Position numbers and translations under genes: made by a program. The notes under the pieces are model-generated. The model was not told where the DNA came from and did not search any database. It worked only from the letters and a program-made list of their open reading frames with translations. Positions 710 to 15,693 of a DNA stretch of 32,000 bases are shown piece after piece. Each line of letters opens with the position of its first letter. Position 1 is the stretch's first letter. Origin of the DNA: an uncultured Desulfovibrionales bacterium (GTDB taxonomy: Bacteria; Desulfobacterota; Desulfovibrionia; Desulfovibrionales; Desulfonatronovibrionaceae); NCBI GenBank assembly GCA_964398785.1, contig CAYNNQ010000021.1:265-32264 (forward strand), written 5' to 3'.

Positions 710-1909
710 ATGGTCGTAGAGAAAAGAAAAGTCCTAGTCACCGGAGCGGGGTGTATCTGCAGCGCAGGGCCGGACGTCCCCTCGTGCACAGCCGCCCTTT
801 ACTCCGGGGATTTTTCCCCACCGCTCCCCCCGAAGGATTTCATGCCCGGGTTTGAGCAGGACTTCCCGGTTTTTGCCTGCAAAAAGCATTTGCACCCTTC
901 TTACCAAGACGAAAAAAACGTGTTTGTCAGCTCCTCCTTTGCCCTGCAGGCCGCCTTGGAAGCCCTGCATAACGCCCGAATCGACCCCGGGGAACTCAGC
1001 CGAAGCCGCACCGGGATATGCATCGGAACCACGGTCGGGGCCTCGCTCAACATCCTTGATTTCTACAAGCACTGGAAAGAAGGCGGGGACCCGGATCTGG
1101 AACAGATATACCGCTACATGCGCAGCAACCCCGCCCTTTTCCTGCAAAAAAAGTTCGGACTATCCGGGCCGGTGCAGACAAGCACCAACGCCTGCTCCAG
1201 CGGAACCGACGCCATCGGTGTTGGCAGGCAATGGATTCAGCAGGGCCTGTGCGATCGGGTGATCGCCGGGGGAACGGATGAATTGAACGAACTGGCCTAT
1301 AACGGTTTCATCCGGCTCATGAACTGCAGCCTTGAGCCCTGCCGCCCGTTCGATGCCGAGCGCAAGGGCCTAAATCTGGGCGAGGGAGCGGGCATACTTG
1401 TCCTGGAAGCCGAAAAAAACGCGGAAAAACACGGAGCGGACATCCTGGGGGAGGTCGCCGCGTACTCGACCGCGGCGGACGCCCATCACCTGACCGCCCC
1501 CCACCCGGAGGCAAAAGGGCTTGAAATCGCCTTTTCCCGGGTGCTTGAACAGACCGGCATACAAACCCGGGACATCGGTGTAATCAATGTGCACGGCACG
1601 GGGACCACGGCCAACGATCAGGCCGAGGCCCATCTTCTCGCCCGCGGCCCGAAATCGGTTCCCTTTTTCGGGACCAAGGGCATGACCGGACACACCCTGG
1701 GAGCGGCCGGGGCAATGGAAGCAGTGTTCTCCCTGTATTGCCTGCGGGAAAAGAAAGTTCCCCCCACGCCCGGCTTCAACACCCCGGACCCGGAACTCGG
1801 AGTCGCCCCGGCAAAGGGAGGAACCGAGTTAAGCGGTCCCTGGGCGGTTTCCCAATCCCTGGCCTTCGGCGGGAACAATTCGGTTCTTCTCCTCAAGGGG
1901 GAGGGATAG
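710..1909 (+). CDS. beta-ketoacyl-ACP synthase (KAS I/II family), cluster KS-1
   Basis: 399 aa with ATG at 710. All three catalytic motifs are present: active-site Cys in TNACSSGTDAIG, first His in DAHHLTAP, second His in NVHGTGT. The GHTLGAAG loop and FGGNN C-terminus are also present, giving a canonical Cys-His-His KS. Confidence 0.9.
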   Translation: MVVEKRKVLVTGAGCICSAGPDVPSCTAALYSGDFSPPLPPKDFMPGFEQDFPVFACKKHLHPSYQDEKNVFVSSSFALQAALEALHNARIDPGELSRSRTGICIGTTVGASLNILDFYKHWKEGGDPDLEQIYRYMRSNPALFLQKKFGLSGPVQTSTNACSSGTDAIGVGRQWIQQGLCDRVIAGGTDELNELAYNGFIRLMNCSLEPCRPFDAERKGLNLGEGAGILVLEAEKNAEKHGADILGEVAAYSTAADAHHLTAPHPEAKGLEIAFSRVLEQTGIQTRDIGVINVHGTGTTANDQAEAHLLARGPKSVPFFGTKGMTGHTLGAAGAMEAVFSLYCLREKKVPPTPGFNTPDPELGVAPAKGGTELSGPWAVSQSLAFGGNNSVLLLKGEG

Positions 1910-1911
1910 CC

Positions 1912-2787
1912 ATGTATATACTCGGAAAAGGGATAACCGGACCCTTTGGGGGATGGCCGGAATTTAAAGATATCGTCCGGGAGGGCAGACCCCTTTTCGG
2001 GACCGAAGAAAAACACGCTGAAAACCGGGATTTGAGCCGTTTTGTCTCTACCCGGTTCAAACGCCGCCTGGATCACTTCACCAAAATGATCCTCACGGCC
2101 GCGCATCTGGCCCTGGAAGACATGCAGCAGGAAGGAGGGGAAGACCCGGGACGTTTGGGGATCATCCTTACAAGCGGCTACGGGCCCTGTCAGACCACTT
2201 TCGACTTTCTGGACGGAATGATCGATCACGGCCCGAATATGGCTTCTCCCCTGGCCTTCTCCCATTCCGTGCACAATGTCCCGGCCGGAATCCTGGCCAT
2301 GTCCCTCAAGGAGAGCTGTCCGTGCACAAGCATCTGCCAGCCGCAAATGCCGGTATTCTCCGGGCTTGTCCAGGCCGGGGCCTGGCTTGAGCAGGGAGTG
2401 GCGGATACCGTTTTGCTCGGGGCGGCGGATGAGGATACCGAACTCTTGCGCTACTGCCTGGGGCGGATACATCCAGGACTTTCACGCGAGAACACCCTGG
2501 TCCAGGAAGGAGCGGCCTTTTTTTGCCTTAAAAAAACAGCAGAACACCGGCCGCAGGCCAAATTGACTCTGGCCGCCCCCGGGGAAAAAAGTCCGGCTGA
2601 AACCCGGGAGGCGAATCTTTTGGGCATACATCCTTCCTTTCCGGTCCGGGCCGCATTTGAGATGGCCGCATTTATGGCCGGGAAAAAGGATGCAAAAATA
2701 GCTTTGGCTGAAAAAAACCTCTCCGGGGACAAGGCGTTTATATGTATGCATTCACCGAATTCTGCTGATAACCATGCAAAAATATAA
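1912..2787 (+). CDS. truncated KS-like protein (chain-length-factor-like partner of KS-1)
   Basis: I chose the internal ATG at 1912, which follows GGGGAGGGA (SD) and lies 2 nt after the KS-1 stop. The track ORF start at 1738 would overlap KS-1. The product is 291 aa and begins MYILGKGITGPFGG. It has thiolase-fold N-half features (GIILTSGYGP, LLGAADE) but lacks the HxTxP, HGTGT and GHxxGAAG motifs. It is about 100 aa shorter than the real KSs. Confidence 0.7.
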   Translation: MYILGKGITGPFGGWPEFKDIVREGRPLFGTEEKHAENRDLSRFVSTRFKRRLDHFTKMILTAAHLALEDMQQEGGEDPGRLGIILTSGYGPCQTTFDFLDGMIDHGPNMASPLAFSHSVHNVPAGILAMSLKESCPCTSICQPQMPVFSGLVQAGAWLEQGVADTVLLGAADEDTELLRYCLGRIHPGLSRENTLVQEGAAFFCLKKTAEHRPQAKLTLAAPGEKSPAETREANLLGIHPSFPVRAAFEMAAFMAGKKDAKIALAEKNLSGDKAFICMHSPNSADNHAKI

Positions 2788-3961
2788 ACTCACAAAAGAG
2801 GATATTCTTCTTATCCTCAGCGGGATGATCAAGGCCGGGCTCATCGCCCGGGGAGAATACCCGGACTTTATTTTTCGTCCCGGCCCCCTTCCCCCGGAGT
2901 CCCGGATCGGCGCGCAGGGGCTTAATCTAAGCGAGTCCGAGGCAAGCAATCTGCGCCGCCGCGCGGAAGAGATGTTCGGGGGAACTCTCCCGGAAGGGGC
3001 CGCACTGGAAGAGTGGGCGGAGGTCTTGCACGCGGCCCGGAAAAGTTCCGGGCGGGAAAAAATCGTCTTTCACACCTCGGGCAGCACCGGCGAGCCCAAA
3101 CCGAACGCGCACGACTATGCCCTGCTGGCCCAGGAGATCGACTGCCAGAAAGAACTGTACCTGGGGACCGAAAGGATCGTCAGCTTTGTTTTTCCCCAGC
3201 ACATCTACGGCTTTCTGTTCACGATCATGCTCCCCAAGGCCCTGGGGTGCCCGGCGCTTTCCCATCCACCGTTCCCGTCCCGGAAAATAATCGAGGATCT
3301 GCGGGAAAACGATCTGGTGCTCGGATTTCCCCTTTTCTGGAACAAACTTCTGGAAACCGGGAAAACCGTGCCCAGAGGCGTATCCGGAGTAACCTCCACC
3401 GCACCCTGCCCCCGGGAAACAATCCTCAGACTCATGGAAAACGGATTTGAAAAAATAACCGAGATATACGGCTCCTCGGAAACCGGGGGAATCGGCACCC
3501 GGAGTCATCCGGACAAGCCATACACCCTGCTTTCCTGCTGGAACGCCCCCGGCCCGGAAAACCCCGGGCATTTAACCCGAGAGCATCCGGCAAGCAAAAA
3601 GACCCTGTCCTATCCGGTCCCGGATGCGATCACCTGGCTTGGCCCGGACACATTCCTCCCCAGGGGCAGAACGGACAGCGCGGTACAGGTAGCCGGAACC
3701 AATGTCTATCCGAAAAAAATAGAAAACATCCTTTTAAAGCACCCCGAAATCCGGGAGTGCGCCGTCCGTCTCATGCGCCCGGAGGAAGGCTCTAGACTGA
3801 AGGTGTTTATAGTCCCGCAAGGGACGAAGGACCCGGAGGAACTGCGCCGGGAACTTGCGGCCTGGATGAAAAAACACTTGACTGCGGCGGAAATTCCCAA
3901 AAAGATAAATTCGGGATGCGAACTCCCCAAAAACGCCATGGGCAAGATTCAGGACTGGTAA
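2774..3961 (+). CDS. short ANL-superfamily adenylating enzyme (acyl/aryl-AMP ligase, probable starter-unit loader)
   Basis: 395 aa with ATG at 2774, overlapping the upstream gene by 14 nt. Motifs read: FHTSGSTGEPK (A3 P-loop), YGSSETGG (A5), GRTDSAVQVAGTNVYP (A8) and the C-terminal PKNAMGKIQ (A10 Lys). Confidence 0.85.
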   Translation: MQKYKLTKEDILLILSGMIKAGLIARGEYPDFIFRPGPLPPESRIGAQGLNLSESEASNLRRRAEEMFGGTLPEGAALEEWAEVLHAARKSSGREKIVFHTSGSTGEPKPNAHDYALLAQEIDCQKELYLGTERIVSFVFPQHIYGFLFTIMLPKALGCPALSHPPFPSRKIIEDLRENDLVLGFPLFWNKLLETGKTVPRGVSGVTSTAPCPRETILRLMENGFEKITEIYGSSETGGIGTRSHPDKPYTLLSCWNAPGPENPGHLTREHPASKKTLSYPVPDAITWLGPDTFLPRGRTDSAVQVAGTNVYPKKIENILLKHPEIRECAVRLMRPEEGSRLKVFIVPQGTKDPEELRRELAAWMKKHLTAAEIPKKINSGCELPKNAMGKIQDW

Positions 3962-3981
3962 CGAATAAAGGAAAAAAAGAC

Positions 3982-4188: not shown

Positions 4189-4189
4189 C

Positions 4190-4210
4190 AAACAGCCTAT
4201 TGGGCTGTTT
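4190..4210. terminator. hairpin between convergent lipoprotein genes (possible bidirectional terminator)
   Basis: The stem aaacagcc (4190-4197) pairs with ggctgttt (4203-4210) across the loop tattg, followed by ttct. It overlaps the stop codon of the minus-strand gene. The U-run is short, so this call is weak. Confidence 0.3.
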
Positions 4211-4604
4211 TCTGCTGCATTCTGCGCATTATTGCCTGATCCAGATAATGGATCCAGCCGTTATAGCGTCTATGGATCACGTCCCCGGAATGGCGCATAT
4301 TTCGACTGTCCTTGTACTTGATGCTGTAGCTCTTGTTGTCATAATATATATCCACCTGAGCCATGAGCTTGCCATGATCCAGTGTAGCCACCATATGCCC
4401 CGGGGATTTCTTTTCCGCATGCCACCCCTTGTCCATACATCCCTTGTAGACTGCATCCGCCACCTGCTGAGTGGTAAGTTGTTCGCCGGATTTTGTTGGA
4501 ACCGGGGCCTCGTTTATGTTGTTAATCGGGGCCTCCACAATACAGGCAGTCAAGAAAAGCACTGAAACCAAAGAAATACACCAAGCGCAAAATCTGGGAT
4601 TCAT
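4197..4604 (-). CDS. lipoprotein of unknown function, last gene of the minus-strand KS operon
   Basis: 135 aa with ATG at 4604..4602, preceded by a strong SD (AGGAGG in aaactaggaggtttatATG). The signal peptide has lipobox L-T-A-C (VLFLTAC). It lies 14 nt downstream of the PlsC-like gene. The region is visibly lower in GC than its neighbours. Confidence 0.65.
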   Translation of the reverse strand: MNPRFCAWCISLVSVLFLTACIVEAPINNINEAPVPTKSGEQLTTQQVADAVYKGCMDKGWHAEKKSPGHMVATLDHGKLMAQVDIYYDNKSYSIKYKDSRNMRHSGDVIHRRYNGWIHYLDQAIMRRMQQKTAQ

Positions 4605-4618
4605 ATAAACCTCCTAGT

Positions 4619-5380
4619 TTACGATGCCTCCAGACAGGAAAGCATCATTTTTCTGACATGTCCGGACATGGCCTTTGCCGGTCTTTTCTCCCGAGCGAAA
4701 CCCTGGGGATAAACCGGGTCAAAGAAACACATCCCTATCTGTCCGGGATAAAAGACCTTCTTTCCCGGAGGAAGCAGCCTTGCTGTACCCTTTATGCACA
4801 ACGGAACCACCGGGACATCGGTGCGCTGGGAAATCTGAAACGCGCCGGTCTTGAACCCGGCTAGCACTTCCTCTTTTCTTCGGGTCCCTTCCGGAAAAAA
4901 AAGCAGGCTTATTCCGTTGTTCAACAGTTCCCTGGCCCGGGCGAGAAACGTCTCCGGATCAAGATCCGCGTCCAAATACCCGGACATGCGCATGAACGGG
5001 GCCAGAAAAGGCACCCGGAACGGCCATCCCCGGACAACCATGGAAACGGCCCAGATCGGCTGGGCCCCGAAACAGTATATATCCAGAATGGACTGGTGGT
5101 TGGCGACAAATATATATGGCGGGGAATTCAGATTCTCCTCGCCGCTCTTGTCGAAGCCCAAAAGGGGCTTGCTGGCCAGATACCAAGCTCGGCCGTAAAG
5201 CCAGATCAAAAAAAGACCAAGCCTTACCCCTTTTTTTTCGGAAAGAAATTTACCTGCGGCCAGGACAAAGGGCATGATCGCCAGGGAAAAAAGCACCAAA
5301 ACACCCTTTACCAGGTAAAGCCAGACATTGAAGACAAGCCTTAAAAGAAGGGGGCTTTGGATTCTTCCAGCCTTGATCAT
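4619..5380 (-). CDS. PlsC-type lysophospholipid/1-acyl-glycerol-3-phosphate acyltransferase (LPLAT family)
   Basis: 253 aa with N-terminal hydrophobic helices. It carries the HX4D motif (NHQSILD) and the FPEGTR motif. Its ATG at 5380..5378 overlaps the ACP stop (ATGA at 5377-5380). Confidence 0.85.
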   Translation of the reverse strand: MIKAGRIQSPLLLRLVFNVWLYLVKGVLVLFSLAIMPFVLAAGKFLSEKKGVRLGLFLIWLYGRAWYLASKPLLGFDKSGEENLNSPPYIFVANHQSILDIYCFGAQPIWAVSMVVRGWPFRVPFLAPFMRMSGYLDADLDPETFLARARELLNNGISLLFFPEGTRRKEEVLAGFKTGAFQISQRTDVPVVPLCIKGTARLLPPGKKVFYPGQIGMCFFDPVYPQGFAREKRPAKAMSGHVRKMMLSCLEAS

Positions 5381-5655: not shown

Positions 5656-6878
5656 GGATCATATCTCCTGATCAAAAGGGCCGTATTGATACCCCCAAAG
5701 GCAAAGTTGTTTTTTAATACCGTACGCACCTCCTTTGTGCAATCCTCACATATAAGATTGACTCCAGCACAGTCCGGATCGATATTTTCCAGGTTATTGG
5801 TCCCGAGGAGTAATCCCTCCTGCATCATGCACCCCACAGCAGCGACTTCCAGAGCACCGCTGGCGGCCATAGTATGCCCCAAGTGCCCTTTTAGGCTGCT
5901 CACGGGAACGGAATCACCAAAAATCCGGGCCAGAACCGCGGCCTCGTCCGCATCCCCCTGAATGGTGGAGGTGGCGTGCGCGTTTATGTAATCTACATCC
6001 CCGGGGGCGGCTCCCGCGCTTTGCAAAGCGGACAGGATGCACTCGTGCATTGTCCGCGGATCCGGGCTGACCAGGTTCTTGGCGCAGTTCATGGACCATC
6101 CGGCGATTTCCCCCAGAATGGGGACCCCGCGCTTAAAGGCGGAGGGCAGGGACTCCAGGACCAACACCCCGCCTCCCTCGGAGCAGACAACCCCGTCCCG
6201 ATCCGCGTCAAAGGGCCGGGAGGCGCGTCCGGGATCATCCCAACTTTTGACCGAGGCCGCATCCATCATGTCAAAGGTGCCCACGGTAAGGGGATGGACC
6301 TCGTCCGCCCCGCCGCAAAGCATCACATCCTGCTTGCCCGCGGCTATGGCCTCGGCCCCGAGGGCTATGGCCTGTCCTCCGGTGGCGCAGGCAGCACCCG
6401 GGGAAATGACCCGGCCGCTTATGCCCAGATACTGGGCCACATTGGCCGCGCAGCTGTGATTCATTATCTTGAAGAAATTGGTGGAGCGGATCTGCTCCAC
6501 GCCGGTACCGTGCACAAGATACTTGCGGAAAACATCCTCCAGGACGTAGGGGCTGTTCACCGTACTGGAGATACTCGCCCCGACTCTGCCGCCGCCAAGA
6601 AAGACCTCATCCAGACCGGCCATCCCAACCGCCTCCCTGGAGGCAAGTGCGGCAAATATACCCATCCTGGACATGCTACGGCGAAAGCGCCGGGGAATAT
6701 CCTTTTCCGGCAACTCGGGCACATAAACGCCTGTATTGCTATCCAGACCGGGTATATTTTCCAGTCCCGGATTGTACTCTATCCGGGTTTCCCCCTTTTT
6801 CAATCCGGACCACATACAATCCGTACCCAAGCCGTATGCGGAAACAGCCCCGGTTCCGGTAATCACGACTCTTTGCAC
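5652..6878 (-). CDS. beta-ketoacyl-ACP synthase, cluster KS-2 (atypical: Asn at the first catalytic His position)
   Basis: 408 aa with a GTG start at 6878..6876, preceded by AGGAAGG. Motifs read: active-site Cys in PGAACATGGQAI, second His in NAHATST, Lys in SSLKGHLGH and the FGGINT C-terminus. The segment that aligns with DAYHMTSP of FabF reads CAKNLVSP. Confidence 0.85.
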   Translation of the reverse strand: MQRVVITGTGAVSAYGLGTDCMWSGLKKGETRIEYNPGLENIPGLDSNTGVYVPELPEKDIPRRFRRSMSRMGIFAALASREAVGMAGLDEVFLGGGRVGASISSTVNSPYVLEDVFRKYLVHGTGVEQIRSTNFFKIMNHSCAANVAQYLGISGRVISPGAACATGGQAIALGAEAIAAGKQDVMLCGGADEVHPLTVGTFDMMDAASVKSWDDPGRASRPFDADRDGVVCSEGGGVLVLESLPSAFKRGVPILGEIAGWSMNCAKNLVSPDPRTMHECILSALQSAGAAPGDVDYINAHATSTIQGDADEAAVLARIFGDSVPVSSLKGHLGHTMAASGALEVAAVGCMMQEGLLLGTNNLENIDPDCAGVNLICEDCTKEVRTVLKNNFAFGGINTALLIRRYDP

Positions 6879-8365
6879 TTATACCTTCCTATCTGTTCCA
6901 AGAGTTTTTCTTCGCCCACTATCATTCCACAAGCGACGATTCCAGAGATAACCGTCCCCAGGATCCCCGGAGCGATAACCCCCTGTCCGGCCAGAAAAAG
7001 TCCCTCTATCTTGGTCATGGGCAAAAGGGGGTACTGATGCACAGCGCACTTCGTCCCGTAAAGTCCGCCGCAAGGATTACTACAGTAATCGCGGAAAGTA
7101 AGCGGAGTGGATGTAGCTATCGGCTGTAACCTCCCACGAATTTCGGGTATCTCTTTGTATACTGCCTGAAGAAGCTTATCCGCCAGCCTGTTTTTAAAAT
7201 CCTTATAGTCCGCCGGTCGATTGCCGGATAATGTTTCAATCCATTTTTCAAAACTGGAAAAAGAAGAAGGGGCAATTATTATCACCCCCGTCTTTCCATC
7301 CATTTCCTCGGTCATACTCAAATGCAGGCAGCTTGGCCCATTTTCATTTTCCAGGCCCACAAAGCGGAGCCAGCCTCGTCTCCGCAGGACCAGCCAATTG
7401 GGAACATTGAATATTTCTGGTTTCCTTCCCTCCAGACGGGCATAAAGCACAAAACCGGAAACAGTCTCCTGCATGCCGGAAAACCTTTTCTGCTGTGCCG
7501 GTCGCAGCCCGCTATCTCCCAAAAGCTCCGGGAGGCGGAGCGGGCTGCCGGTATAAACACAGTTTTCGGCAGCCAAGACAAGACCATCGGCCAAACGCAC
7601 GGAGCGGATGCGTCTCGAAGCGTCCAGTCCCAATTCCGTGGCCCGGCTAGAACAAAAAATATCCACCCCGTATTTCTTGAGACTGTTATGAAAAGCCCGG
7701 ACAAGACTCCGACCGCCACCTTTGATATAGTGCACCGAACGTAGATAGGAAGCAAAGATCTGGGCATGGACCTGCATAGTAGCCTCGCTAGGTTCCACTC
7801 CGGCCAGGATCGCCGGGTAGGAAAAGACCGCCCGCAATCCGGGATCGTCTACGTTCTCCCCCAAAAAATGTCCAACGCTTATGTCCTGTTGGATATACGA
7901 TTCCAGACTGTTTTTCTTACCCCCCTTGAAGGTGAGATATGGTGAGGATGTCCAGTAATTGGCGCATTCCCGAAAAAAATGCTCGACTTCCTCCCGGCGA
8001 TGGGGATACATGCGCAAAAGATCCTGTCGGAGCCGATCCGGCCCATAGGAAACAAAAAAATCATCCCCTAAATCGGGACCGCGCAATCCCAAAAATCCAT
8101 CACTGGGGAGCTCTCCTCCCTCGAGTCCATCCTTAAGGCCCAGGAACCGAAAATAGGTATCCAGGACATGTCCCTCTCCCAGCTCCCCCACATAATGCAC
8201 GCCAGTATCGAAAAATATGCCCTGCCTCTGAAACCCACGCAGGGTTGGAGCAAGCATGGATGAGGACTCCACCAGAGCAACCCGGTGCTCCATTCTGGCC
8301 AGGGCTATTGCCGTAGTCATGCCGGCCGCTCCCCCGCCGATCACAACCGTATCATAACTGGACAT
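6863..8365 (-). CDS. FAD/NAD(P)-dependent oxidoreductase, phytoene desaturase (CrtI)/CrtISO/retinol-saturase-like family
   Basis: I chose ATG 8365..8363 (MSSYDTVVIGGGAAGMTT...RVALVE, a dinucleotide-binding GxGxxG fold right at the N-terminus). This ATG shares one base with the KS-3 stop (TGATG at 8367..8363). The track start at 8419 would overlap KS-3 by 55 nt. The product is 500 aa, and its C-terminal GLFLAGQGVIAPG is typical of the family. Its 3' end overlaps the KS-2 start by 16 nt. Confidence 0.85.
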   Translation of the reverse strand: MSSYDTVVIGGGAAGMTTAIALARMEHRVALVESSSMLAPTLRGFQRQGIFFDTGVHYVGELGEGHVLDTYFRFLGLKDGLEGGELPSDGFLGLRGPDLGDDFFVSYGPDRLRQDLLRMYPHRREEVEHFFRECANYWTSSPYLTFKGGKKNSLESYIQQDISVGHFLGENVDDPGLRAVFSYPAILAGVEPSEATMQVHAQIFASYLRSVHYIKGGGRSLVRAFHNSLKKYGVDIFCSSRATELGLDASRRIRSVRLADGLVLAAENCVYTGSPLRLPELLGDSGLRPAQQKRFSGMQETVSGFVLYARLEGRKPEIFNVPNWLVLRRRGWLRFVGLENENGPSCLHLSMTEEMDGKTGVIIIAPSSFSSFEKWIETLSGNRPADYKDFKNRLADKLLQAVYKEIPEIRGRLQPIATSTPLTFRDYCSNPCGGLYGTKCAVHQYPLLPMTKIEGLFLAGQGVIAPGILGTVISGIVACGMIVGEEKLLEQIGRYKCKES

Positions 8366-9579
8366 CAAAACCCCAAAATCAAAGAACAGTTGCTTCCTCC
8401 AAAACCGGCGGAATTGCACATAACCCTTCTCGGCTTTTCCAGCACAGTTTCCGGGACTATATTCAGCCCTTCAGCCGCAGGGTCTGGAACACTGAAATTG
8501 ATATTCGGAGCAACAAAAGCGTGTCTGGCCATCAGGCAGGAATAGACAACCTGGGAAGCACCGGCCATCCACAATTCATGCCCGGTCATGGACTTAAGGG
8601 AGGAAACCATGGGAGAGCAATCCGAAAAGACCCGGCGGATATTTTCCGCCTCTCCGGCATCCCCGGCCGGAGTAGAGGTGGCATGGGCGCAGACATAGTC
8701 AATATCACCCGGAGACAGGGCAGCATCCTCCAGGGCCTTGTCCATAGCTTGGGCCAATCCCGAAAAACTGGGGACTGAAAGATGATACCCATCCGAGGAG
8801 AAGCCATAACCTATAACCTCCCCCAGTACAGGACCGCCCCGGCGTCGGACCTCTTCCCGGTCCTCCAGTATAAGTGCTGCCGCCCCTCCGCTGGGCACCA
8901 ATCCTTCCCTGGAGGCATCAAAGGGGCGACTGGCCCTTTCCGGATTTTCTGTATCCCGGGAAAATGCCCCCAGCCCGTCAAAACTACATGTGGATTCCCA
9001 GTTTATCTCCTGTGCCCCGCCGCAGACCACTTTCTTCTGTCGTCCCAGGGCAATCAGGTCATAAGCTTGGCCCACGGCGTTGCCACCGCTAGAGCATGCG
9101 GAGCTCACGGTCCAGCAGGCCCCCATGTTTCCCAAAAGGACATTCAGATTCATGGTTACAGTGGAGTTCATGGAACGGAAAATAGCCCCGCTACCGATGG
9201 ACCCGGTTGCTCCCCTCTCTCTTAAAAGATCCACCTGTTCCGCGCATGCCCCGCAGGATGAATCCACGCCGAAGATCAGGCCGGTATCCCCATTTTGCAG
9301 ATCCTGTTCTTGCAGACCGGATTCCTGCATGGCCTCAAGGACTGCGGCATACGCCTGCACCCCGAATTCGGGCAGAGTTTTCCTCTGTTTGCGATTTAGG
9401 TACGCGGCGGGTCTGAATCCTTCAATCTTTCCCGTCAAGGGACTGAAAAAACCAAGCTTCTCCCGTTCGGAATCGATCCCGATCCCGGAAAGGCCGTGAT
9501 ACAGGGATTCGGCCACGGCCTGCTTCCCGATGCCGATGCTGGAGACGATTCCCGTCCCGGTTATTACTACCCGCTTCAT
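8365..9579 (-). CDS. beta-ketoacyl-ACP synthase, cluster KS-3
   Basis: 404 aa with ATG at 9579..9577. Motifs read: active-site Cys in SSACSSGGNAVG, first His in SSDGYHLSVP, second His in CAHATSTPAGD and the FGGSN C-terminus. This gives a Cys-His-His KS. Confidence 0.9.
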   Translation of the reverse strand: MKRVVITGTGIVSSIGIGKQAVAESLYHGLSGIGIDSEREKLGFFSPLTGKIEGFRPAAYLNRKQRKTLPEFGVQAYAAVLEAMQESGLQEQDLQNGDTGLIFGVDSSCGACAEQVDLLRERGATGSIGSGAIFRSMNSTVTMNLNVLLGNMGACWTVSSACSSGGNAVGQAYDLIALGRQKKVVCGGAQEINWESTCSFDGLGAFSRDTENPERASRPFDASREGLVPSGGAAALILEDREEVRRRGGPVLGEVIGYGFSSDGYHLSVPSFSGLAQAMDKALEDAALSPGDIDYVCAHATSTPAGDAGEAENIRRVFSDCSPMVSSLKSMTGHELWMAGASQVVYSCLMARHAFVAPNINFSVPDPAAEGLNIVPETVLEKPRRVMCNSAGFGGSNCSLILGF

Positions 9580-9791
9580 GATTCCCGCTTATTTATTGCC
9601 ATATTTATCCGAACGCGGCCTAAGCCGACGACTCGGTGTTTTATAAAAATTATGCTGAATAATTACATTGCAATTACGTTTTTACAGGTGTGTTTGCAGG
9701 ACAACATTATCAAAATACGCCCCAGTTCAAGGCTCAATGCAAGCCCAACGTCTTTTTTAGTCCTTATGCCGGGATATTGAAGGCCACAAAA

Positions 9792-10520
9792 TCAGGTATG
9801 GACTCCGCCGTTAACGGAAATTACTTCTCCTGTAATGTACCCGGCCCGCTGGGAACACAAAAACGAAACCACGCCGGCCACTTCCTCCGGTTTGCCGAAA
9901 CGCCTGAGTGGTATCCGGTTTAAAATCTCTTCTTGGGACAATTCCTCAAGCATTCCGGTATCAATAAACCCCGGCGCAACAGCATTGACCAATATATTGC
10001 GTTTGGCCACTTCCACGGCCAGAGACCGCGTGGCCCCGATAAGCCCAGACTTGGCCGCGGAATAGTTCACCTGCCCCGGCACACCGGTCTCTCCGGATGT
10101 AGAGGCTATATTGACTATCCGTCCCTCTTTGCGTCTGAGCATCTTTTCCACCACCGGCTTGGTTACATTGTAGAACCCTTCCAGATGCACCTGCAAAACA
10201 TCCTTCCAGTCCTTTTCCTTCATCCATACCAAAAGTGTATCCCGATTGAATCCGGCGTTATTCACCAACGCATACGGGATGTCTTGTTCCAGACGGGGTT
10301 GAAGGGCCTCTCGCGTTTCATCCCCGTCGGCAACATCAAACCCCATAATTTCGCATTTACGGCCCATTTCCCGAATATCTGCAGCAACTTCCTCGGCTGC
10401 GGAAAGATTACTTTTGTAATTTAGCCAAATATCGAATCCATCTGCAGCCAGCGCCCGGGCTGTAGCCGCACCAATGCCCTTGCTTGCGCCGGTTATCAAA
10501 GCTATACGTTCACTTCCCAT
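9792..10520 (-). CDS. 3-oxoacyl-ACP reductase-like short-chain dehydrogenase (FabG family)
   Basis: I chose the internal ATG 10520..10518 (MGSERIALITGASKGIGAA), because the 30-codon upstream extension in the track looks non-coding. The 242 aa product has TGxxxGIG, NNAG and YSAAKSG (YxxxK) motifs. A 212 bp gap separates it from KS-3 downstream. Confidence 0.9.
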   Translation of the reverse strand: MGSERIALITGASKGIGAATARALAADGFDIWLNYKSNLSAAEEVAADIREMGRKCEIMGFDVADGDETREALQPRLEQDIPYALVNNAGFNRDTLLVWMKEKDWKDVLQVHLEGFYNVTKPVVEKMLRRKEGRIVNIASTSGETGVPGQVNYSAAKSGLIGATRSLAVEVAKRNILVNAVAPGFIDTGMLEELSQEEILNRIPLRRFGKPEEVAGVVSFLCSQRAGYITGEVISVNGGVHT

Positions 10521-10665
10521 TTTATGCCACCCCTTGACCACAGAATTTATACAATTAAAATAGAGGGATATCTGTTTATAATTGTTTATCACTTCCACTT
10601 GTAGTGACAAAAGTTTATAATACGGATAGGGTGTTTAGTCAAAATTTCAATATGAGCAACAAGAT
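10521..10665. promoter_or_regulatory. AT-rich divergent promoter region (fabG-like gene leftward, radical SAM operon rightward)
   Basis: This 145 bp AT-rich spacer lies between divergent starts. It contains a perfect TATAAT at 10616-10621, about 45 nt upstream of ATG 10666, but I found no convincing -35 element. The call is positional only. Confidence 0.3.
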
Positions 10666-11952
10666 ATGAAACTAAAACTTATTTATCCCAGCTGGCCCAA
10701 GCTGCGGAATCAAACCAAATTTGACCTTCCCCCGCACGGTCCGGTGGTTATGGCCACCACTGTCCCTAAAGAAGTACAAATCCGGTTCACTGACGAAAAC
10801 ATTCAGGATATAGACTTTGAAGAAAAAGCGGATCTGGTGGCCATTTCCGTAATGCTCACCTGCCAACTCCCCCGGGCCTTTGAAATAGCCGCGGAATTCA
10901 GGGAAAGGGGAATACCCGTTCTTTTCGGGGGGATTTCCACCACCCTGCACAAGGAAGAAGTCAGCCGGCATGCGGACAGCATTTTTCTGGGGGAAACAGA
11001 GGGGAGATTCGCGGAGGTAATCCAGGATTTCCTAAGCAATCGCCTGAAAAAAGTATACGATTATTCCCGGCAACATCCGGACATGGCTCTTGTGGAAACC
11101 GCCCGCAGAGATATCTTGCAACGGGAACTATATAATTATCGGGGTGTACAGATGGTGGATCTGGTACATGCCTCGAGGGGGTGCCGCTTCAATTGCTTTC
11201 CCTGTTGCTCCCGCTACCTGGGCGGGAAAAAACACCGCCCCCGTCCTCTATCCAAAGTTGTTCAAGAAATGGAATCCATACCCAATAACCGCCTTTTTTT
11301 GGTAGACAACTCCCTGGCCCAGAACAAAAAATGGTTGCGGGAACTCTTTACCGCAATACAGCCTTTAAAAAAGAAATGGATATCCCACCCGGTATTTTAC
11401 GACCCGGAAATAATCAATCTGGCGGCAAAGGCCGGTTGCTGGTATGTTTATCAGGCAATTATAGACACCTCGGAAAAAACCAAAGAACGTATCAAAATGC
11501 TCAAGGACCACGGAATCGGAATTGAGGGAACCATTCTCTTGGGAACCGATGACCACGACGAATCATATATAAAAAGGCTGGTCGATTTCCTTCTGGAAAA
11601 CGAATTGGACCTGGCCGAGTTCACCATACTCACCCCTTTCCCGCATACACCGATTCGCAGGCAGTTCGAAGCCGAGGGTCGGATTCTTTCCAACGAATGG
11701 ATCAAATACACCACGGACCAGGTGGTTTTCCAGCCGGCGAAAATGACCGTGGATAAATTACAGGAGCTATACGATTATGCCTGGGATACATTTTACGGCA
11801 AGGGGGGACAACAATTGAGGATGGCTCAACTCCTGAGAAAAGTTATAGAGAAGGAAAAAACAGACGGCACCTATCGCCGCTACGATCCTCCCCAAGGGAA
11901 TGCGAACTACAGTAGCCTGGACACAGAGCAAAAAACATCAGCAATGGATTAA
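10666..11952 (+). CDS. B12-binding-domain radical SAM enzyme (class B), rSAM-1
   Basis: 428 aa. The N-terminal Rossmann-like cobalamin-binding region (LIYPSWPK...LPPHGPVVMAT...ADLVAISV...PVLFGG) is followed by the CxxxCxxC cluster motif GCRFNCFPC (nt 11182-11205). Confidence 0.9.
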   Translation: MKLKLIYPSWPKLRNQTKFDLPPHGPVVMATTVPKEVQIRFTDENIQDIDFEEKADLVAISVMLTCQLPRAFEIAAEFRERGIPVLFGGISTTLHKEEVSRHADSIFLGETEGRFAEVIQDFLSNRLKKVYDYSRQHPDMALVETARRDILQRELYNYRGVQMVDLVHASRGCRFNCFPCCSRYLGGKKHRPRPLSKVVQEMESIPNNRLFLVDNSLAQNKKWLRELFTAIQPLKKKWISHPVFYDPEIINLAAKAGCWYVYQAIIDTSEKTKERIKMLKDHGIGIEGTILLGTDDHDESYIKRLVDFLLENELDLAEFTILTPFPHTPIRRQFEAEGRILSNEWIKYTTDQVVFQPAKMTVDKLQELYDYAWDTFYGKGGQQLRMAQLLRKVIEKEKTDGTYRRYDPPQGNANYSSLDTEQKTSAMD

Positions 11953-11978
11953 ACCCAAACTCCCTGCATCCTTATTAC

Positions 11979-14321
11979 ATGGACAACAAAAGAATACTTC
12001 TGGTCCATCCATTGGGCTACGATTCTATATACGCGGGCCAGGACGTGGCCAGGCTGGCCAATCTCATGCCGCCTTTGGGTCTGGCCTCTCTGGCTTCCTA
12101 TCTGGAAAACAACGGTCTGCGCGCGGATATTTTGGACTGCTTTGCCCATCCGGACTGCCTGGACAGAATGAACAGCTATCTCCGCGAATATCGCCCCAGA
12201 TTTATCGGCCTGACCTGCACTACATCGGCGTTCCCCAACTCAGTCCAAATCATCCAGAGAGCCAAACAGATACTCCCGGAAATCAGATCCGTAGTCGGCG
12301 GAGCGCACCCTTCTGCTCTAAAAGAAGAAGCCCTTCGGGACAGCCCGGATGTGGACTATGCCGTAGTGGGCGAGGGAGAAAAGCCACTAAAGAGACTGCT
12401 CCAACGGACGGAAAAAGAAGCACACCTCATTCCTGGTATATGTTATCACGGCCATAACGGTCCGGTATTTAACGGGACGCAAACAGATCTGGTCCAACTG
12501 GACGATCTCCCTTTCCCTGCCTATGATAAATTACCCGGTTTCCCGGATACCTATACTCTGCCGGTATTCAATTATCCCCGCCGCCCAAACACCAGTTGCA
12601 TATCCAGCCGCGGATGCCCGTACAAGTGCTCCTACTGCGACCGTTCCGTGTTTGGATCCAGTTTCCGGTACAACTCCGCCGGATATCTCTATGCACATAT
12701 GCGCTATCTCCACAACCGCTGGGGGATCAGACATATAAATTTCTATGACGACCAGTTCACTTTGAATCGCGGGCGGGTAGCGGAACTATGCACCATGCTC
12801 ATGGACCATCCCTTGGGTATGACCTTTAACTGTGCGGCCAGGGCGGAACACGTGGATCCGGAGCTTTTGGAGATGATGAAAGACGCCGGATGCTGGATGA
12901 TAAGCCTGGGCATAGAAAACGGCAATCAAAAACTGCTTTCCAAGCACAGGCAAAATGCCAATCTGGATATGGTCGCCCGCACTGTAAAGGATATAAAAAA
13001 GGCCGGCATAAGAGCAAAAGGCCTATTCATGCTCGGACTGCCCGGTGAAACGGAAAAGACAATCAAAGAGACCAAAACCTATGCACATTCACTTAACCTG
13101 GACGACCTAAATCTAGCCAAGTTCACCCCCTTTCCAGGCTCCCCACTTTATAAAGACATACATATCCACGGCAAATTCGAGGAAGACTATGCCCGAATGG
13201 ACTGCATGCATTTCTTATTCATACCCCAAGGACTATCGGAACAATTCTTGGAAGACAAATTCCAGGAATTTTACAAAGAACATTTCACCCGCCCCCGCAC
13301 TCTATACAACTACTTGTCCATGCTCTGGAAATCCCCGGACAGCTGGAAGAGATTCATCCTCTCTCTGCCGGATTTCCTTAAATTCGCCCATCAGGGAAAC
13401 CGGATGAGCGCGGAGGCCTCCTCACATAAGCGCAACTGGGACAGCAAAAGTCTAGGTGGAGAATGGCAGCACCGTTTCTTTTATGCCCTAATTCGGACGT
13501 TAGGTGTTCGCCCGGCCTATGCTTTTCTTTACCCGGTCACTCTGTGGTACGTTCTTCTTCACCCCAGTGTACGCCGCAGAATCAGACCTTACCTTAAACA
13601 CCGCTTCCCGGAAAAAAAAGCCATCCCCAGACTCTTCGCCACCTACCGTTTGAGTTTGAACTTTGCCCAAATATTGGTGGATCGTGCAGCTATAGGCATT
13701 CTGGGGTCCAGCAGATTCAAAATAGATTTTCCGGAAAGAGAAAAGTTCCGGGAAATAGCGCATCAGGGTAAGGGGGCGGTATTGATCAATACCCACGCAG
13801 GCTCCTGGCAGGTAGCCATAGCCGCTTTGGAACTTTTGTCCACGCCAATATCCATGCTTATGCAAAAAGACCGGAAAGATGTGGATCGCCCATACTACAG
13901 CCACCGCCAACAAGAAAGTCCGTACAGGACCATCGATCCGAGCAAAGGGAGTGAAGCCATGCTGGAGATGTTCAACTCCCTGAAAAAAGGTGAAATACTG
14001 GGAGTCATGGGCGACCGGGCCTTTGGTAATGACAAAAACCTGGTCGATGTTGATTTTTTGGGGAAAAAGGCTTGGCTGCCATTTAGCCCGTATAAGCTGG
14101 CTTCCTCCACCGGAGCACCGTGTATGGTTCTCTTAACGCACAGAACCGGATATCTGCATTATACAGTCCGATTGGCCCGGGTGATTGATGTCCCCAGGGA
14201 CCTGGGCCGCCAGCCGGGAAATTTCCGGGAATACGCCCAAGAATATACACATACCCTGGAAGAATTTGTAAAAAAACATCCTTGGCAATTCTTCAACTTC
14301 TACGACATGTGGGAAAAATAA
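11979..14321 (+). CDS. fusion protein: B12-binding radical SAM enzyme (rSAM-2) plus C-terminal LpxL/HtrB-type (lipid A biosynthesis) acyltransferase domain
   Basis: A single uninterrupted 780 aa ORF. The N-terminal half has the B12-binding region (ILLVHP...MPPLGLASLASYL) and CxxxCxxC GCPYKCSYC (nt 12615-12638). The C-terminal ~300 aa (from about nt 13420) has a hydrophobic anchor (AYAFLYPVTLWYVLL), a catalytic-loop-like NTHAGSWQ (nt 13794-13811) and the family-typical tail HPWQFFNFYDMW. Confidence 0.9.
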   Translation: MDNKRILLVHPLGYDSIYAGQDVARLANLMPPLGLASLASYLENNGLRADILDCFAHPDCLDRMNSYLREYRPRFIGLTCTTSAFPNSVQIIQRAKQILPEIRSVVGGAHPSALKEEALRDSPDVDYAVVGEGEKPLKRLLQRTEKEAHLIPGICYHGHNGPVFNGTQTDLVQLDDLPFPAYDKLPGFPDTYTLPVFNYPRRPNTSCISSRGCPYKCSYCDRSVFGSSFRYNSAGYLYAHMRYLHNRWGIRHINFYDDQFTLNRGRVAELCTMLMDHPLGMTFNCAARAEHVDPELLEMMKDAGCWMISLGIENGNQKLLSKHRQNANLDMVARTVKDIKKAGIRAKGLFMLGLPGETEKTIKETKTYAHSLNLDDLNLAKFTPFPGSPLYKDIHIHGKFEEDYARMDCMHFLFIPQGLSEQFLEDKFQEFYKEHFTRPRTLYNYLSMLWKSPDSWKRFILSLPDFLKFAHQGNRMSAEASSHKRNWDSKSLGGEWQHRFFYALIRTLGVRPAYAFLYPVTLWYVLLHPSVRRRIRPYLKHRFPEKKAIPRLFATYRLSLNFAQILVDRAAIGILGSSRFKIDFPEREKFREIAHQGKGAVLINTHAGSWQVAIAALELLSTPISMLMQKDRKDVDRPYYSHRQQESPYRTIDPSKGSEAMLEMFNSLKKGEILGVMGDRAFGNDKNLVDVDFLGKKAWLPFSPYKLASSTGAPCMVLLTHRTGYLHYTVRLARVIDVPRDLGRQPGNFREYAQEYTHTLEEFVKKHPWQFFNFYDMWEK

Positions 14322-14346
14322 TCATGTACAAAATAGCGGGGAAAAA

Positions 14347-14601
14347 ATGGAGATCAAGACTCAGCTAAAGGAAAAATTAATCGAAGGACTCAACCTGGAA
14401 GACATCCGGCCGGAGGATATAATGGATGACCAGCCGCTTTTCGGGGAAGGACTGGGACTGGACTCCCTGGATGCAGTGGAGTTGGTAGTCATAATCCAGA
14501 AGAATTTCGGGGTGGAGATAAGCGATATGGAACAGGGGAGGCAGGCATTCGCCTCGATTAACGCCCTGGCCGAATTCATAGAAATCAACCAATCCCACTA
14601 A
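14347..14601 (+). CDS. acyl carrier protein (cluster ACP-B)
   Basis: 84 aa with ATG at 14347 preceded by GGGGAAAAA. It carries the Ppant attachment motif LGLDSLDAVELVVIIQ and lies 25 nt after the fusion gene. Confidence 0.85.
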   Translation: MEIKTQLKEKLIEGLNLEDIRPEDIMDDQPLFGEGLGLDSLDAVELVVIIQKNFGVEISDMEQGRQAFASINALAEFIEINQSH

Positions 14602-14668
14602 ACCAATAAGCCACACAACTATAACATCAATTTAAATGAGGCCGGAATTTTCCCTGCCCAACCATAAA

Positions 14669-15319
14669 TTAATTCTGAAAGAGACTAGCTTTTATTTCCG
14701 GAGACATAAGAAGCACTTTCAATTTTTCTTTTAAGGCTTTGGGTACTACCGTAGTGGCATGAGATGGCGGATTTATGAAATTTCCACCCAAATCATCTTC
14801 GCCTTGAATACGTTTTTCGGCCAATTCCTTACCTTCTTTTGAAAAAACCTTGATCTCAAGATTATAATACAAGCCGACATTTACCATAGTATCGCTTTTC
14901 CATTGATATATAGTTAAAAGTAATAATCTATCGGCCTCTTTTTTCATAAGAATATTTTTTACTTCCAAGACGGTTTGGGAATGGTCCGTATAAACGGGCT
15001 TTGCCTCAAACCCTGTTTTTTGAAGAGCCTTACTAAGTGCATTTACTATATCAGAAGATAAAGGTCTTCCACTTTGAGTTTCAACATCAAAAGGATTGCC
15101 GTATCCCCCTCTCTGCAAGCCAATAAAATTAGGCTCCTTATCGCTATTTACAATAAATGAACGCTTATCCAGAGCAGCAACGCCAACTTCCCCTTCTGCT
15201 TTGGAATGCAAGTTAGGGTGAGCAGAATGCATGGCGTATTTATTGCCTATAGCACAAGCACTGATTGAGAACAGAAACATCGTGGCCAAAATATACTTGA
15301 TTATTTTTTTCAAATCCAT
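14669..15319 (-). CDS. lipoprotein of unknown function in an AT-rich island
   Basis: I chose ATG 15319..15317 (MDLKKIIKYILATMFLFSISAC, lipobox I-S-A-C), preceded by GTGGAGTGG. The track start at 15331 is a GTG inside that SD. The product is 216 aa. The gene is conspicuously AT-rich relative to both flanks. Confidence 0.7.
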   Translation of the reverse strand: MDLKKIIKYILATMFLFSISACAIGNKYAMHSAHPNLHSKAEGEVGVAALDKRSFIVNSDKEPNFIGLQRGGYGNPFDVETQSGRPLSSDIVNALSKALQKTGFEAKPVYTDHSQTVLEVKNILMKKEADRLLLLTIYQWKSDTMVNVGLYYNLEIKVFSKEGKELAEKRIQGEDDLGGNFINPPSHATTVVPKALKEKLKVLLMSPEIKASLFQN

Positions 15320-15371
15320 CTGCCACTCCACTTATCTATAAAACCACATAAACAAAATATTTCCAAAATAG

Positions 15372-15408
15372 AAAAACCCGCCTCGCCAAAAAAGCGAAGC
15401 GGGTTTTG
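15372..15408 (-). terminator. rho-independent terminator of the RRM-protein gene
   Basis: Read on the minus strand: cccgcttcgc-ttttttg-gcgaggcggg followed by tttttctatttt. The stems are plus 15377-15386 and 15394-15403, forming 10 bp with one G-U pair. It begins about 25 nt after the stop codon. Confidence 0.75.
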
Positions 15409-15432: not shown

Positions 15433-15693
15433 TTACCAGCGTTTTTGAGGCTTGGGCCGGGCTTCGTTAACCTTCAGGTTACGGCCACCCAAGTCGCTAC
15501 CGTCCAGGCTCTTGATGGCCTCTTCGGCATCGGCTTCCTCCATTTCGACAAATCCGAATCCCCGGGACCTTCCTGTTTCCCGATCATAAATAATCTTCGC
15601 GGACAGGACTTCGCCGTATTGAGCGAAGGCGTCGCGGACGTCGTCTTCCGAGGAAGACCAAGGCAAATTTCCAACATAGATGTTCTTAGCCAT
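15433..15693 (-). CDS. RRM-type (RNP-1/RNP-2) RNA-binding protein
   Basis: 86 aa with ATG preceded by AAGGAG. It has RNP-2 IYVGNL and RNP-1 RGFGFVEM, the classic single-RRM bacterial Rbp architecture. Confidence 0.9.
   Translation of the reverse strand: MAKNIYVGNLPWSSSEDDVRDAFAQYGEVLSAKIIYDRETGRSRGFGFVEMEEADAEEAIKSLDGSDLGGRNLKVNEARPKPQKRW

Follow-up and report, generated by a model that had tools for sequence, protein, structure and literature searches.

A class-B radical SAM enzyme fused to an ApeJ-type acyltransferase in an aryl-polyene-like gene cluster of an uncultured Desulfovibrionales bacterium

The fused gene and its junction

We analysed a stretch of 32,000 nucleotides (the window) from an uncultured Desulfovibrionales bacterium of the Desulfonatronovibrionaceae (assembly GCA_964398785.1, contig CAYNNQ010000021.1, positions 265 to 32,264 of the forward strand). 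On its plus strand, at 11979-14321, lies a reading frame that is unbroken over 780 codons and joins a B12-binding radical S-adenosylmethionine (SAM) enzyme to an acyltransferase resembling the C-terminal half of Escherichia coli ApeJ. The gene stands in a cluster similar to those for aryl polyenes (APE). Its parts are the following (aa, amino acids; nt, nucleotides).

11979..14321, plus strand: fusion gene, 780 aa and a stop codon; N-terminal B12-binding radical SAM enzyme, C-terminal ApeJ-type (PF03279) acyltransferase
12045..12398, plus strand: B12-binding domain, aa 23-140 (PF02310, E 2e-26, 92.6 bits against a cut-off of 32.1)
12600..13076, plus strand: radical SAM core, aa 208-366 (PF04055, E 2.5e-24, 86.7 bits)
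12615..12638, plus strand: CPYKCSYC, the CX3CX2C [4Fe-4S] cluster motif, aa 213-220
13389..13460, plus strand: junction and linker, aa 471-494, aligned with the C-termini of stand-alone radical SAM proteins and the N-termini of acyltransferases
13461..14318, plus strand: acyltransferase domain, aa 495-780 (PF03279; fold of LpxM and PatA; equivalent to the C-terminal half of E. coli ApeJ)
13794..13811, plus strand: HAGSWQ with the putative catalytic His606 and Gln611 (H-x4-Q); H606 aligned to PatA His126
14007..14018, plus strand: MGDR, aa 677-680, with D679 as candidate relay acid by alignment to PatA Glu200
14277..14312, plus strand: conserved C-terminal tail HPWQFFNFYDMW, aa 767-778 (family pattern P-x-Q-F-F-N-F-x-D-x-W)

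Pfam gathering thresholds served as the domain criterion and were exceeded by all three domains of the fusion protein; the acyltransferase match (Lip_A_acyltrans, PF03279) covers aa 494-778 with E 3.5e-18 and 66.3 bits against a cut-off of 22.3. A preliminary description, made from the sequence alone, had proposed a single polypeptide in which a class-B radical SAM enzyme continues into a PF03279-type domain of 300 residues, and these matches bear out both the architecture and the assignment of its C-terminal part. It had also named the right motifs, with starts that were off by one to two codons: position 12615 begins CPYKCSYC, GCPYKCSYC (aa 212-220) being encoded by nt 12612-12638, and position 13794 begins HAGSWQ, NTHAGSWQ (aa 604-611) being encoded by nt 13788-13811.

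At the junction, homology to radical SAM proteins (rSAMs) runs to ...FLKFAHQGNR and is followed by a variable segment, MSAEASSHKRN, after which homology to the acyltransferases sets in at W-x-S-K-S-L-G. The rSAM part extends to within a few residues of the usual rSAM C-terminus, the acyltransferase part begins at the conserved start of its family (W-x-S-[RK]-S-[ILV]-G), and the fused protein keeps approximately the full length of both stand-alone proteins. The frame is continuous through the linker SAEASSHKRNWDSKSLGGEW (aa 477-496, nt 13407-13466), of which aa 477-487 are disordered in an AlphaFold2 model, and stop codons occur across the junction in both other reading frames. An internal start at Met476 (ATG at 13404, overlapping a TGA of another frame in the manner of a vestigial ATGA) was considered and rejected, since the residue is Ile in the sister lineage and is not conserved.

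Occurrence and maintenance of the fusion

In a word-indexed search of 5.8 billion proteins, the fused sequences among the best 120 matches were the identical P0001 and P0002, a protein of 781 aa that is 71% identical to the window fusion and has the same three domains; the other 118 were stand-alone rSAMs of approximately 480 aa with 57-61% identity. The cluster of P0002 has 15 members (NCBI, JGI, ENA, Logan) annotated as Desulfonatronovibrionaceae or Desulfovibrionales metagenome-assembled genomes (MAGs), with 70-74% identity, and a genome scan added the fused loci L004 and L005. The 18 fused sequences come from independent assemblies in these four data sources and form two lineages that are 71% identical; frame and linker length are the same in all, in agreement with the earlier statement that the linker holds no stop or frameshift. 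CX3CX2C, HAGSWQ and MGDR are kept in every complete fused sequence. The only one of the 18 without CX3CX2C is P0126, a fragment of 431 aa that lacks the N-terminal part.

Among the fused sequences, the ratio of non-synonymous to synonymous substitution rates (dN/dS) lies at approximately 0.09-0.11 in the rSAM half, at 0.08-0.18 in the acyltransferase half and at 0.6-1.0 over aa 471-488. Linker length is constant, and dS is saturated between the two fused lineages. Both halves are under purifying selection and the linker is drifting. Such a pattern is characteristic of a protein whose two domains have long been maintained while the linker between them was free to change.

HMMER was run exhaustively against 1.84 billion representatives at 50% identity, and P0001 alone covered both halves; the fusion therefore belongs to one small clade of relatives of sulfate reducers and probably has a single origin. 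Literature searches on aryl polyene/radical SAM/acyltransferase and on PF03279/radical SAM found no paper on this fusion architecture; the preliminary description, which knew of no characterised example, was correct in this respect, and the architecture is rare.

The radical SAM half

With a B12-binding domain, a radical SAM core and the CX3CX2C motif, the N-terminal half has the features of cobalamin-dependent (class B) radical SAM enzymes. It is approximately 55-61% identical to stand-alone rSAM orthologues and reaches none of the curated-family cut-offs, scoring 197 of the 578 bits set for HpnJ, 170 of 481 for BchE, 143 of 600 for PhpK, 104 of 360 for TIGR04072 and 91 of 500 for AprD4. The closest solved structure is AprD4 (6fd2, E 4.9e-24). 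As all class-B family scores lie far under their cut-offs, a function is not transferable to this half. Judged by sequence comparison, it belongs to an orthologue group that travels with the ApeJ-type acyltransferase across several phyla.

Related B12-rSAMs with approximately 33-37% identity (P0302, P0342, P0371, P0314, P0283, P0331, P0308 and P0292) are fused to other enzymes, namely a YdjC/HpnK-like deacetylase, GT2, GT4, a DegT aminotransferase and class I methyltransferases; P0342 resembles a fusion of HpnJ-like and HpnK-like proteins. The longer B12-rSAM proteins of the representative search were checked for hidden acyltransferase domains, and none was found; they carry YdjC, GT2, GT4, DegT or methyltransferase domains.

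The acyltransferase half

From end to end, the acyltransferase half is 48% identical to a stand-alone protein of 319 aa from Desulfuromonas carbonis, and it is 40-50% identical to about 120 other stand-alone proteins of approximately 310 aa. It aligns with residues 244-550 of ApeJ from E. coli CFT073 (query 2-303, BLASTP E 1e-16, 25% identity), and hhalign gives a probability of 98.8% over 287 columns. The ApeJ used here is c1194 (558 aa, L084:41213-42889), L084 being the aryl-polyene cluster of E. coli CFT073. The LpxL/LpxM equivalog cut-offs (NCBIfam) are missed, with 48.1 against 248 bits for PRK08419 and 30.5 against 273 bits for PRK06553. Of the earlier label of an LpxL-type domain, membership in PF03279 stands and the subtype is replaced: on these comparisons, the half is the counterpart of the ApeJ C-terminal half and not an LpxL orthologue. 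An assignment to ApeD was ruled out, E. coli ApeD being a PlsC-type (PF01553) protein without similarity to the C-terminal domain.

The structure was modelled for the C-terminal domain alone, and the AlphaFold2 model (65-sequence alignment) has a pLDDT of 89.8. Foldseek matched it to LpxM (5knk, E 4.7e-14; 5kn7, E 9.3e-14) and PatA (approximately 1e-11), with PlsC remote; over PatA and LpxM the E values range from 4.7e-14 to 8e-10, and the target-normalised TM-score reaches 0.80. An alignment that pooled the fusion with stand-alone rSAMs and acyltransferases was discarded, as it placed acyltransferases on the rSAM half with 14-23% identity.

Across two sets of aligned family members, one of 28 and one of 65 sequences, H-x-G-x-W-Q and M-x-D-R do not vary; 64 of the 65 are stand-alone. 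The preliminary description had pointed out a Gln at the acidic position of the usual H-x4-[D/E], and HAGSWQ confirms it; since H-x4-Q is invariant in family members whether fused or not, the Gln is a trait of the clade and not a result of the fusion. E. coli ApeJ has HLGDVE at this place, that is, H-x4-E. In an alignment to PDB structures, H606 falls on PatA His126 and the invariant D679 on PatA Glu200, a residue reported to tune the catalytic histidine in a charge-relay manner (PMC8519569). At the level of this alignment, D679 is a candidate for the distal acid of the acyltransferase charge relay that the preliminary description had suggested looking for. The motifs mark the family as a distinct PF03279 clade with an invariant H-x4-Q / G-D-R putative active site. 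The tail pattern P-x-Q-F-F-N-F-x-D-x-W is family-wide and still visible in ApeJ as DWFNFFDFW.

The membrane anchor that had also been described was not recovered as a clear transmembrane helix, the most hydrophobic 19-mer of the region reaching a Kyte-Doolittle value of 1.13 (aa 513-531) by hydropathy only, with no dedicated topology predictor applied. The model has four aromatic-rich helices at aa 495-575. Such helices without a clear transmembrane segment, together with cytoplasmic substrates for both halves, would fit an interfacial membrane anchor as described for PatA (PMC8519569).

The surrounding gene cluster

Genes 710-14601 form an APE-like cluster in which ApeA, D, E, H, O, Q and R have counterparts; the window lacks ApeI, K, L, M, N and P. 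The members besides the fusion gene are listed here.

710..2787, plus strand: pair of ketosynthase (ApeO-like) and chain-length factor
2774..3961, plus strand: aryl/acyl adenylating ligase, 4-coumarate-CoA-ligase-like, ApeH-like
4197..4604, minus strand: small ApeA-like lipoprotein, 31% identical to E. coli ApeA (E 1e-17), with a signal peptide then Cys
4619..5380, minus strand: PlsC-type (PF01553) acyltransferase, ApeD-like, 30% identity to ApeD over 119 aa
5652..6878, minus strand: beta-ketoacyl-ACP synthase, ApeR-like, 38% identical to ApeR (ACP, acyl carrier protein)
6863..8419, minus strand: flavoenzyme of the CrtI/phytoene-desaturase family
8365..9579, minus strand: beta-ketoacyl-ACP synthase
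9792..10610, minus strand: ketoreductase (FabG / FlxB / ApeQ-like), 47% identical to E. coli ApeQ
10666..11952, plus strand: divergent B12-binding/radical SAM paralogue, 428 aa, 26 nt upstream of the fusion, with GCRFNCFPC (CX3CX2C) in its translation
14347..14601, plus strand: ACP, ApeE-like, 25 nt downstream of the fusion (PF00550; PRK09184 78.7 bits against a cut-off of 70; 43% identical to E. coli ApeE)

The gene order of the window is kept in L005 and, over the part that the contig covers, in L001, with 61-85% identity, and the short fused contig L004 matches it as well. In six of the seven relatives that have an acyltransferase-ACP pair and a tabulated gene order, the ACP gene comes after the acyltransferase; the ACP encoded at 14347-14601 would be the probable carrier of the acyl donor. 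The paralogue at 10666-11952 has weak Pfam matches (B12-binding 33 bits, Radical_SAM 22.5 bits) and is 84-85% identical in relatives of the fused clade, which makes it better conserved than the fusion. Its counterpart in D. carbonis is a 'weak' rSAM of 421 aa.

For the ketoreductase at 9792-10610, the TTG start adds approximately 30 N-terminal residues; the Pfam match begins at aa 36, and the homologue in L001 has 242 aa. The true start is probably a Met near nt 10520, and this would leave an intergenic region of approximately 145 nt with promoter-like sites at 10534-10582. A scan of 10400-15400 for promoters and terminators gave counts not above those in shuffled sequences (11 against 7.3±3.1 and 10 against 6.5±2.5). 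The two promoter-like sites could fit, weakly, an operon of rSAM, fusion and ACP genes.

The window cluster combines B12-rSAMs with a CrtI-like desaturase, an ACP, an aryl/phenylacetyl-CoA-type ligase and several FabF paralogues. Rattray et al. 2009 (PMC2649909) described synteny among Kuenenia, Desulfotalea and Geobacter for a group of genes comprising rSAMs, several FabF paralogues, a ligase and a phytoene-desaturase-like gene, and recorded the CrtI-type gene in the Kuenenia and Desulfotalea clusters. The gene list of this ladderane-type cluster is given in PMC4790861, and genome miners report such clusters as 'ladderane' in many non-anammox phyla (PMC9902471). The TIGR04072 family (rSAM_ladder_B12) is not represented in the window, whose two rSAMs score 104 and 39 bits against its cut-off of 360. 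At BLASTP E 1e-10, no homologue of the ApeJ-N-like GT2 (D. carbonis query) was found in the window, L001, L004 or L005.

Several further features of the window were recorded. Lipoproteins (signal peptide then Cys) are predicted at 3916-4188 (plus strand, 90 aa) and at 14669-15331 (minus strand, 220 aa, no Pfam match), the latter between the ACP gene and a gene for an RRM-type RNA-binding protein (15433-15693). The AT-rich stretch 1-700, just upstream of the cluster, contains a small open reading frame of 89 aa at 128-397 (minus strand) starting MKYLNWNSNKNEISKRERGISFEEI, whose product presumably resembles BrnT/DUF497-type toxins. At 17269-23380 (minus strand) lies an AddA/AddB-type helicase-nuclease pair of 1131 aa (UvrD-like with PD-(D/E)XK) and 913 aa (PD-(D/E)XK), which is syntenic in L001. 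The lpxC gene (UDP-3-O-acyl-GlcNAc deacetylase, 27496-28416, minus strand) is found amid ilvD, prmC and prfA and is unlinked to the cluster; its presence indicates that the organism makes lipid A.

Gene order in relatives and origin of the fusion

We sorted 83 loci that carry the rSAM orthologue by gene arrangement, using up to 10 kb of DNA on each side.

Fused: 4 loci
rSAM, GT2 and acyltransferase as separate genes in that order: 32 loci
rSAM followed directly by the acyltransferase, separate reading frames: 9 loci
Acyltransferase elsewhere within the locus: 9 loci
No acyltransferase within the locus: 21 loci
Locus truncated at a contig end, or another gene after rSAM and GT2: 8 loci

In two Geobacter MAGs, L007 (7800-7870) and L039 (12480-12560), rSAM and acyltransferase lie in one frame with a single stop codon between them, so that one point mutation would recreate the fusion. 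Since the two genes are adjacent in nine loci, twice one in-frame stop apart, the fusion can be understood as a joining of operon neighbours. In D. carbonis a GT2 gene stands between them that is equivalent to ApeJ's N-terminal half (35% identity, E 4e-34), and the acyltransferase domain is itself fused to GT2 in E. coli ApeJ and in P0375 (543 aa). On the gene orders, the fusion would have required only the absence or loss of GT2 and the loss of one stop codon. In a Mesoterricola MAG (L080:7539-9713, minus strand), the acyltransferase domain is C-terminal in a stop-to-stop frame of 724 codons; the approximately 430 codons upstream, possibly non-coding, have no Pfam family match.

As the two halves are neighbour or near-neighbour genes in most relatives, the fusion shows a shared pathway and not necessarily physical coupling. 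The preliminary description had argued that it physically couples radical modification of an acyl chain to acyl transfer. The common pathway is supported by the gene orders; physical coupling is plausible and is not established by a fusion of neighbouring genes.

Proposed function and alternative explanations

We propose, with moderate confidence, that the protein is a bifunctional tailoring and attachment enzyme of an aryl-polyene-like ('ladderane-type') lipid cluster of the type II polyketide synthase/fatty acid synthase kind, and that the fusion has a single origin. From the homologies, the conserved motifs, the purifying selection and the gene orders described above, we infer its substrates, the order of its reactions and any channelling. 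In the C-terminal domain, His606 would act as general base with Asp679 in place of the PatA relay acid Glu200. This domain would receive its acyl or polyene chain from the ApeE-like ACP, whose gene lies 25 nt downstream, and would attach it as an ester to a hydroxyl group of an acceptor lipid on the cytoplasmic side of the membrane. Such a role has a precedent in Xenorhabdus, where ApeJ is proposed to add GalNAc to a phosphoglycerolipid and then to acylate the sugar with the ApeE-bound aryl polyene (bioRxiv 10.1101/2020.12.19.423268), and E. coli apeJ mutants accumulate late, unattached intermediates (PMC8253772). The rSAM domain would carry out a radical tailoring step on the same lipid, for which class precedent makes C-methylation or another C-H functionalisation likeliest; acyl-ACP, the acylated lipid or the headgroup could serve as its substrate. 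The fusion may have arisen once in a Desulfonatronovibrionaceae-related lineage in which the intervening ApeJ-N-like GT2 was absent and the stop codon of the rSAM gene was lost, leaving a drifting linker of approximately 11-18 residues. Its likely benefit would be equal stoichiometry and the tethering of an otherwise soluble rSAM to an acyltransferase at the membrane interface.

Several points weigh against this proposal. The uncharacterised rSAM orthologue group misses every curated family cut-off (HpnJ, BchE, TIGR04072), and the function cited for ApeJ is itself a preprint proposal from mutant phenotypes. The Gln of H-x4-Q, which differs from ApeJ (H-x4-E), LpxM and PatA, could mean altered chemistry. 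With the GT2 half of ApeJ missing from the window and from the contigs of the fused clade, the GalNAc-phosphoglycerol lipid of Xenorhabdus cannot be taken for granted as the acceptor. The ApeI/ApeP dehydratases, thioesterase, LolA and MMPL are missing as well, so that the product may differ much from known aryl-polyene lipids. Moreover, a fusion of operon neighbours can be selectively near-neutral, and tethering or channelling would be a further step. A more ambitious form of the proposal is a true bifunctional machine in which the B12-rSAM acts at the membrane interface on C-H bonds of a fatty acyl or polyketide chain, by methylation, cross-linking or cyclisation, and the chain passes directly to or from the ApeJ-type acyltransferase. 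We regard this form as improbable at present.

Among the alternatives, direct coupling would have the rSAM modify the ACP-bound acyl or polyene chain, which is then channelled straight to the fused acyltransferase site, so that a reactive intermediate is guarded or handed over. In its favour, a short linker joins the two activities in a single polypeptide, purifying selection acts on both halves, the ACP gene is directly downstream, and rSAM and acyltransferase are linked in 45 of the 83 loci. In addition, it has been proposed for related Kuenenia clusters that rSAMs act on ketoacyl chains bound to ACP (PMC2649909; PMC13459092). However, in 32 loci the two are separate proteins with a GT2 gene between them, which argues that obligatory channelling is not a property of the pathway, and 21 of the 83 rSAM loci have no such acyltransferase within the DNA examined. 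The linker is unconserved and predicted to be disordered, and an interface or tunnel is only hypothetical. Overall, we consider direct coupling rather unlikely.

The fusion might also be a near-neutral accident, in which a stop codon was lost between operon neighbours with an effect no greater than that of co-expression. The Geobacter relatives that are one stop-codon mutation from the same fusion (L007, L039), its limitation to one clade, the drifting linker and the existence of other pairwise fusions of the module (GT2 and acyltransferase in E. coli ApeJ and P0375) are in line with such an accident. Nevertheless, the fused state, the frame and the linker length persist to 71% protein identity with saturated dS; the fusion has been at least long tolerated and may still be beneficial. 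An origin of this kind without functional consequence is in our view unlikely.

A further explanation holds that the rSAM acts on the acceptor headgroup, as HpnJ does on hopanoid glucosamine, and that the acyltransferase then acylates the modified headgroup. In support of it, the ApeJ-N-like GT2 gene is the most frequent immediate downstream neighbour of the rSAM gene (32 loci), HpnJ is the top-scoring curated family (197 bits), and the related B12-rSAMs with approximately 33-37% identity are fused to sugar-handling enzymes (YdjC/HpnK-like deacetylase, GT2, GT4, DegT aminotransferase). Yet the HpnJ score is far under its cut-off, and BchE scores about equally or better in the D. carbonis orthologue. 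The sugar-enzyme fusions are distant paralogues, and the fused clade lost the neighbouring GT2 while its rSAM is still under purifying selection. Action on the headgroup is, on this balance, quite unlikely.

A genuine LpxL/LpxM-like role of the C-terminal domain, as a secondary acyltransferase of lipid A, is very improbable. The PF03279 match, the LpxM-like fold and the lpxC gene in the window would be expected in such a case, but the LpxL equivalog scores fall short (48 against 248 and 30.5 against 273 bits), the motif is H-x4-Q instead of H-x4-[D/E], the close relatives all lie in polyketide-type clusters beside ACP, ketosynthase and chain-length factor, and lpxC is 13 kb off on the opposite strand amid housekeeping genes. 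An assembly or sequencing artefact, in which an indel merged two separate genes, is effectively refuted by the 18 fused sequences with their many substitutions and common frame and by the stops in the other frames at the junction.

Significance

Clusters that genome mining labels 'arylpolyene' or 'ladderane' are common in anaerobes of many phyla, and the reactions of their B12-rSAMs are not known; rSAM orthologues are found in the anammox clusters, which have long been suspected of making ladderanes (PMC2649909, PMC13459092). A natural fusion of rSAM and acyltransferase indicates that both act in the same late, membrane-proximal part of the pathway, and it offers a single protein in which both activities can be assayed with the adjoining ACP. 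If the bifunctional machine considered above were real, it would be the first radical-SAM/acyltransferase enzyme and a natural 'Rosetta stone' that pins down where in the pathway the unexplained B12-rSAMs from the widespread non-anammox 'ladderane-type' clusters and their anammox orthologues act. What we describe is a new domain-fusion variant in a known, biochemically uncharacterised cluster family and not a categorically new system. As a fusion of one clade that can arise trivially from neighbouring genes, it comes as no surprise; its value is that of a useful lead, a Rosetta-stone link and an experimental handle.

Comparison with known systems

One close arrangement is the stand-alone module of rSAM, GT2-DUF2062, PF03279 acyltransferase and ACP in 'ladderane-type' clusters of D. 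carbonis, Geobacter, Phycisphaerales, Brocadiia and Rokubacteria. The motifs and the downstream ACP are the same, and identity to the fusion is approximately 55-61% for the rSAM and 40-48% for the acyltransferase, but the module consists of separate proteins. The D. carbonis cluster (CP015080, L002) further differs by a bona fide TIGR04072 rSAM (686 bits), which is also found in L008 and L039, and by ApeI/ApeP-type dehydratases, a thioesterase, LolA, MMPL and PagL, none of which occurs in the window; dehydratases of the ApeI/ApeP type, a thioesterase and MMPL are likewise present in L010 and L039, the latter also having LolA. The window cluster is a reduced version of the Desulfuromonas cluster.

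The acyltransferase half is homologous to ApeJ throughout, the N-terminal W-x-x-x-S region and the FNF-x-D-x-W tail included, and the two have in common the GDR motif, the type of cluster and an adjoining ApeE-like ACP. In E. coli CFT073 (c1194) and Xenorhabdus doucetiae, however, the fusion partner is an N-terminal GT2, whereas in the window it is a B12-radical SAM enzyme with no GT2 nearby, and genes of the radical SAM and CrtI-like kinds are missing from the E. coli cluster. The same acyltransferase clade is thus GT2-fused in E. coli ApeJ and P0375, rSAM-fused in the window and stand-alone elsewhere.

The mycobacterial phosphatidylinositol mannoside acyltransferase PatA and the Acinetobacter lipid A secondary acyltransferase LpxM have the same fold and the same place of the catalytic His as the C-terminal domain, at 16-19% identity and without a radical SAM partner. 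PatA has H-x4-D where the window clade has H-x4-Q and uses acyl-CoA as donor, whereas ACP would be the donor carrier here; its target is a sugar hydroxyl on a glycolipid, the kind of acceptor also proposed for ApeJ. On the other side of the junction, the class-B enzymes HpnJ, BchE, AprD4, TokK and TsrM share the B12-binding domain, the radical SAM core and CX3CX2C with the fusion, and, unlike the window protein, none of them is fused to an acyltransferase.

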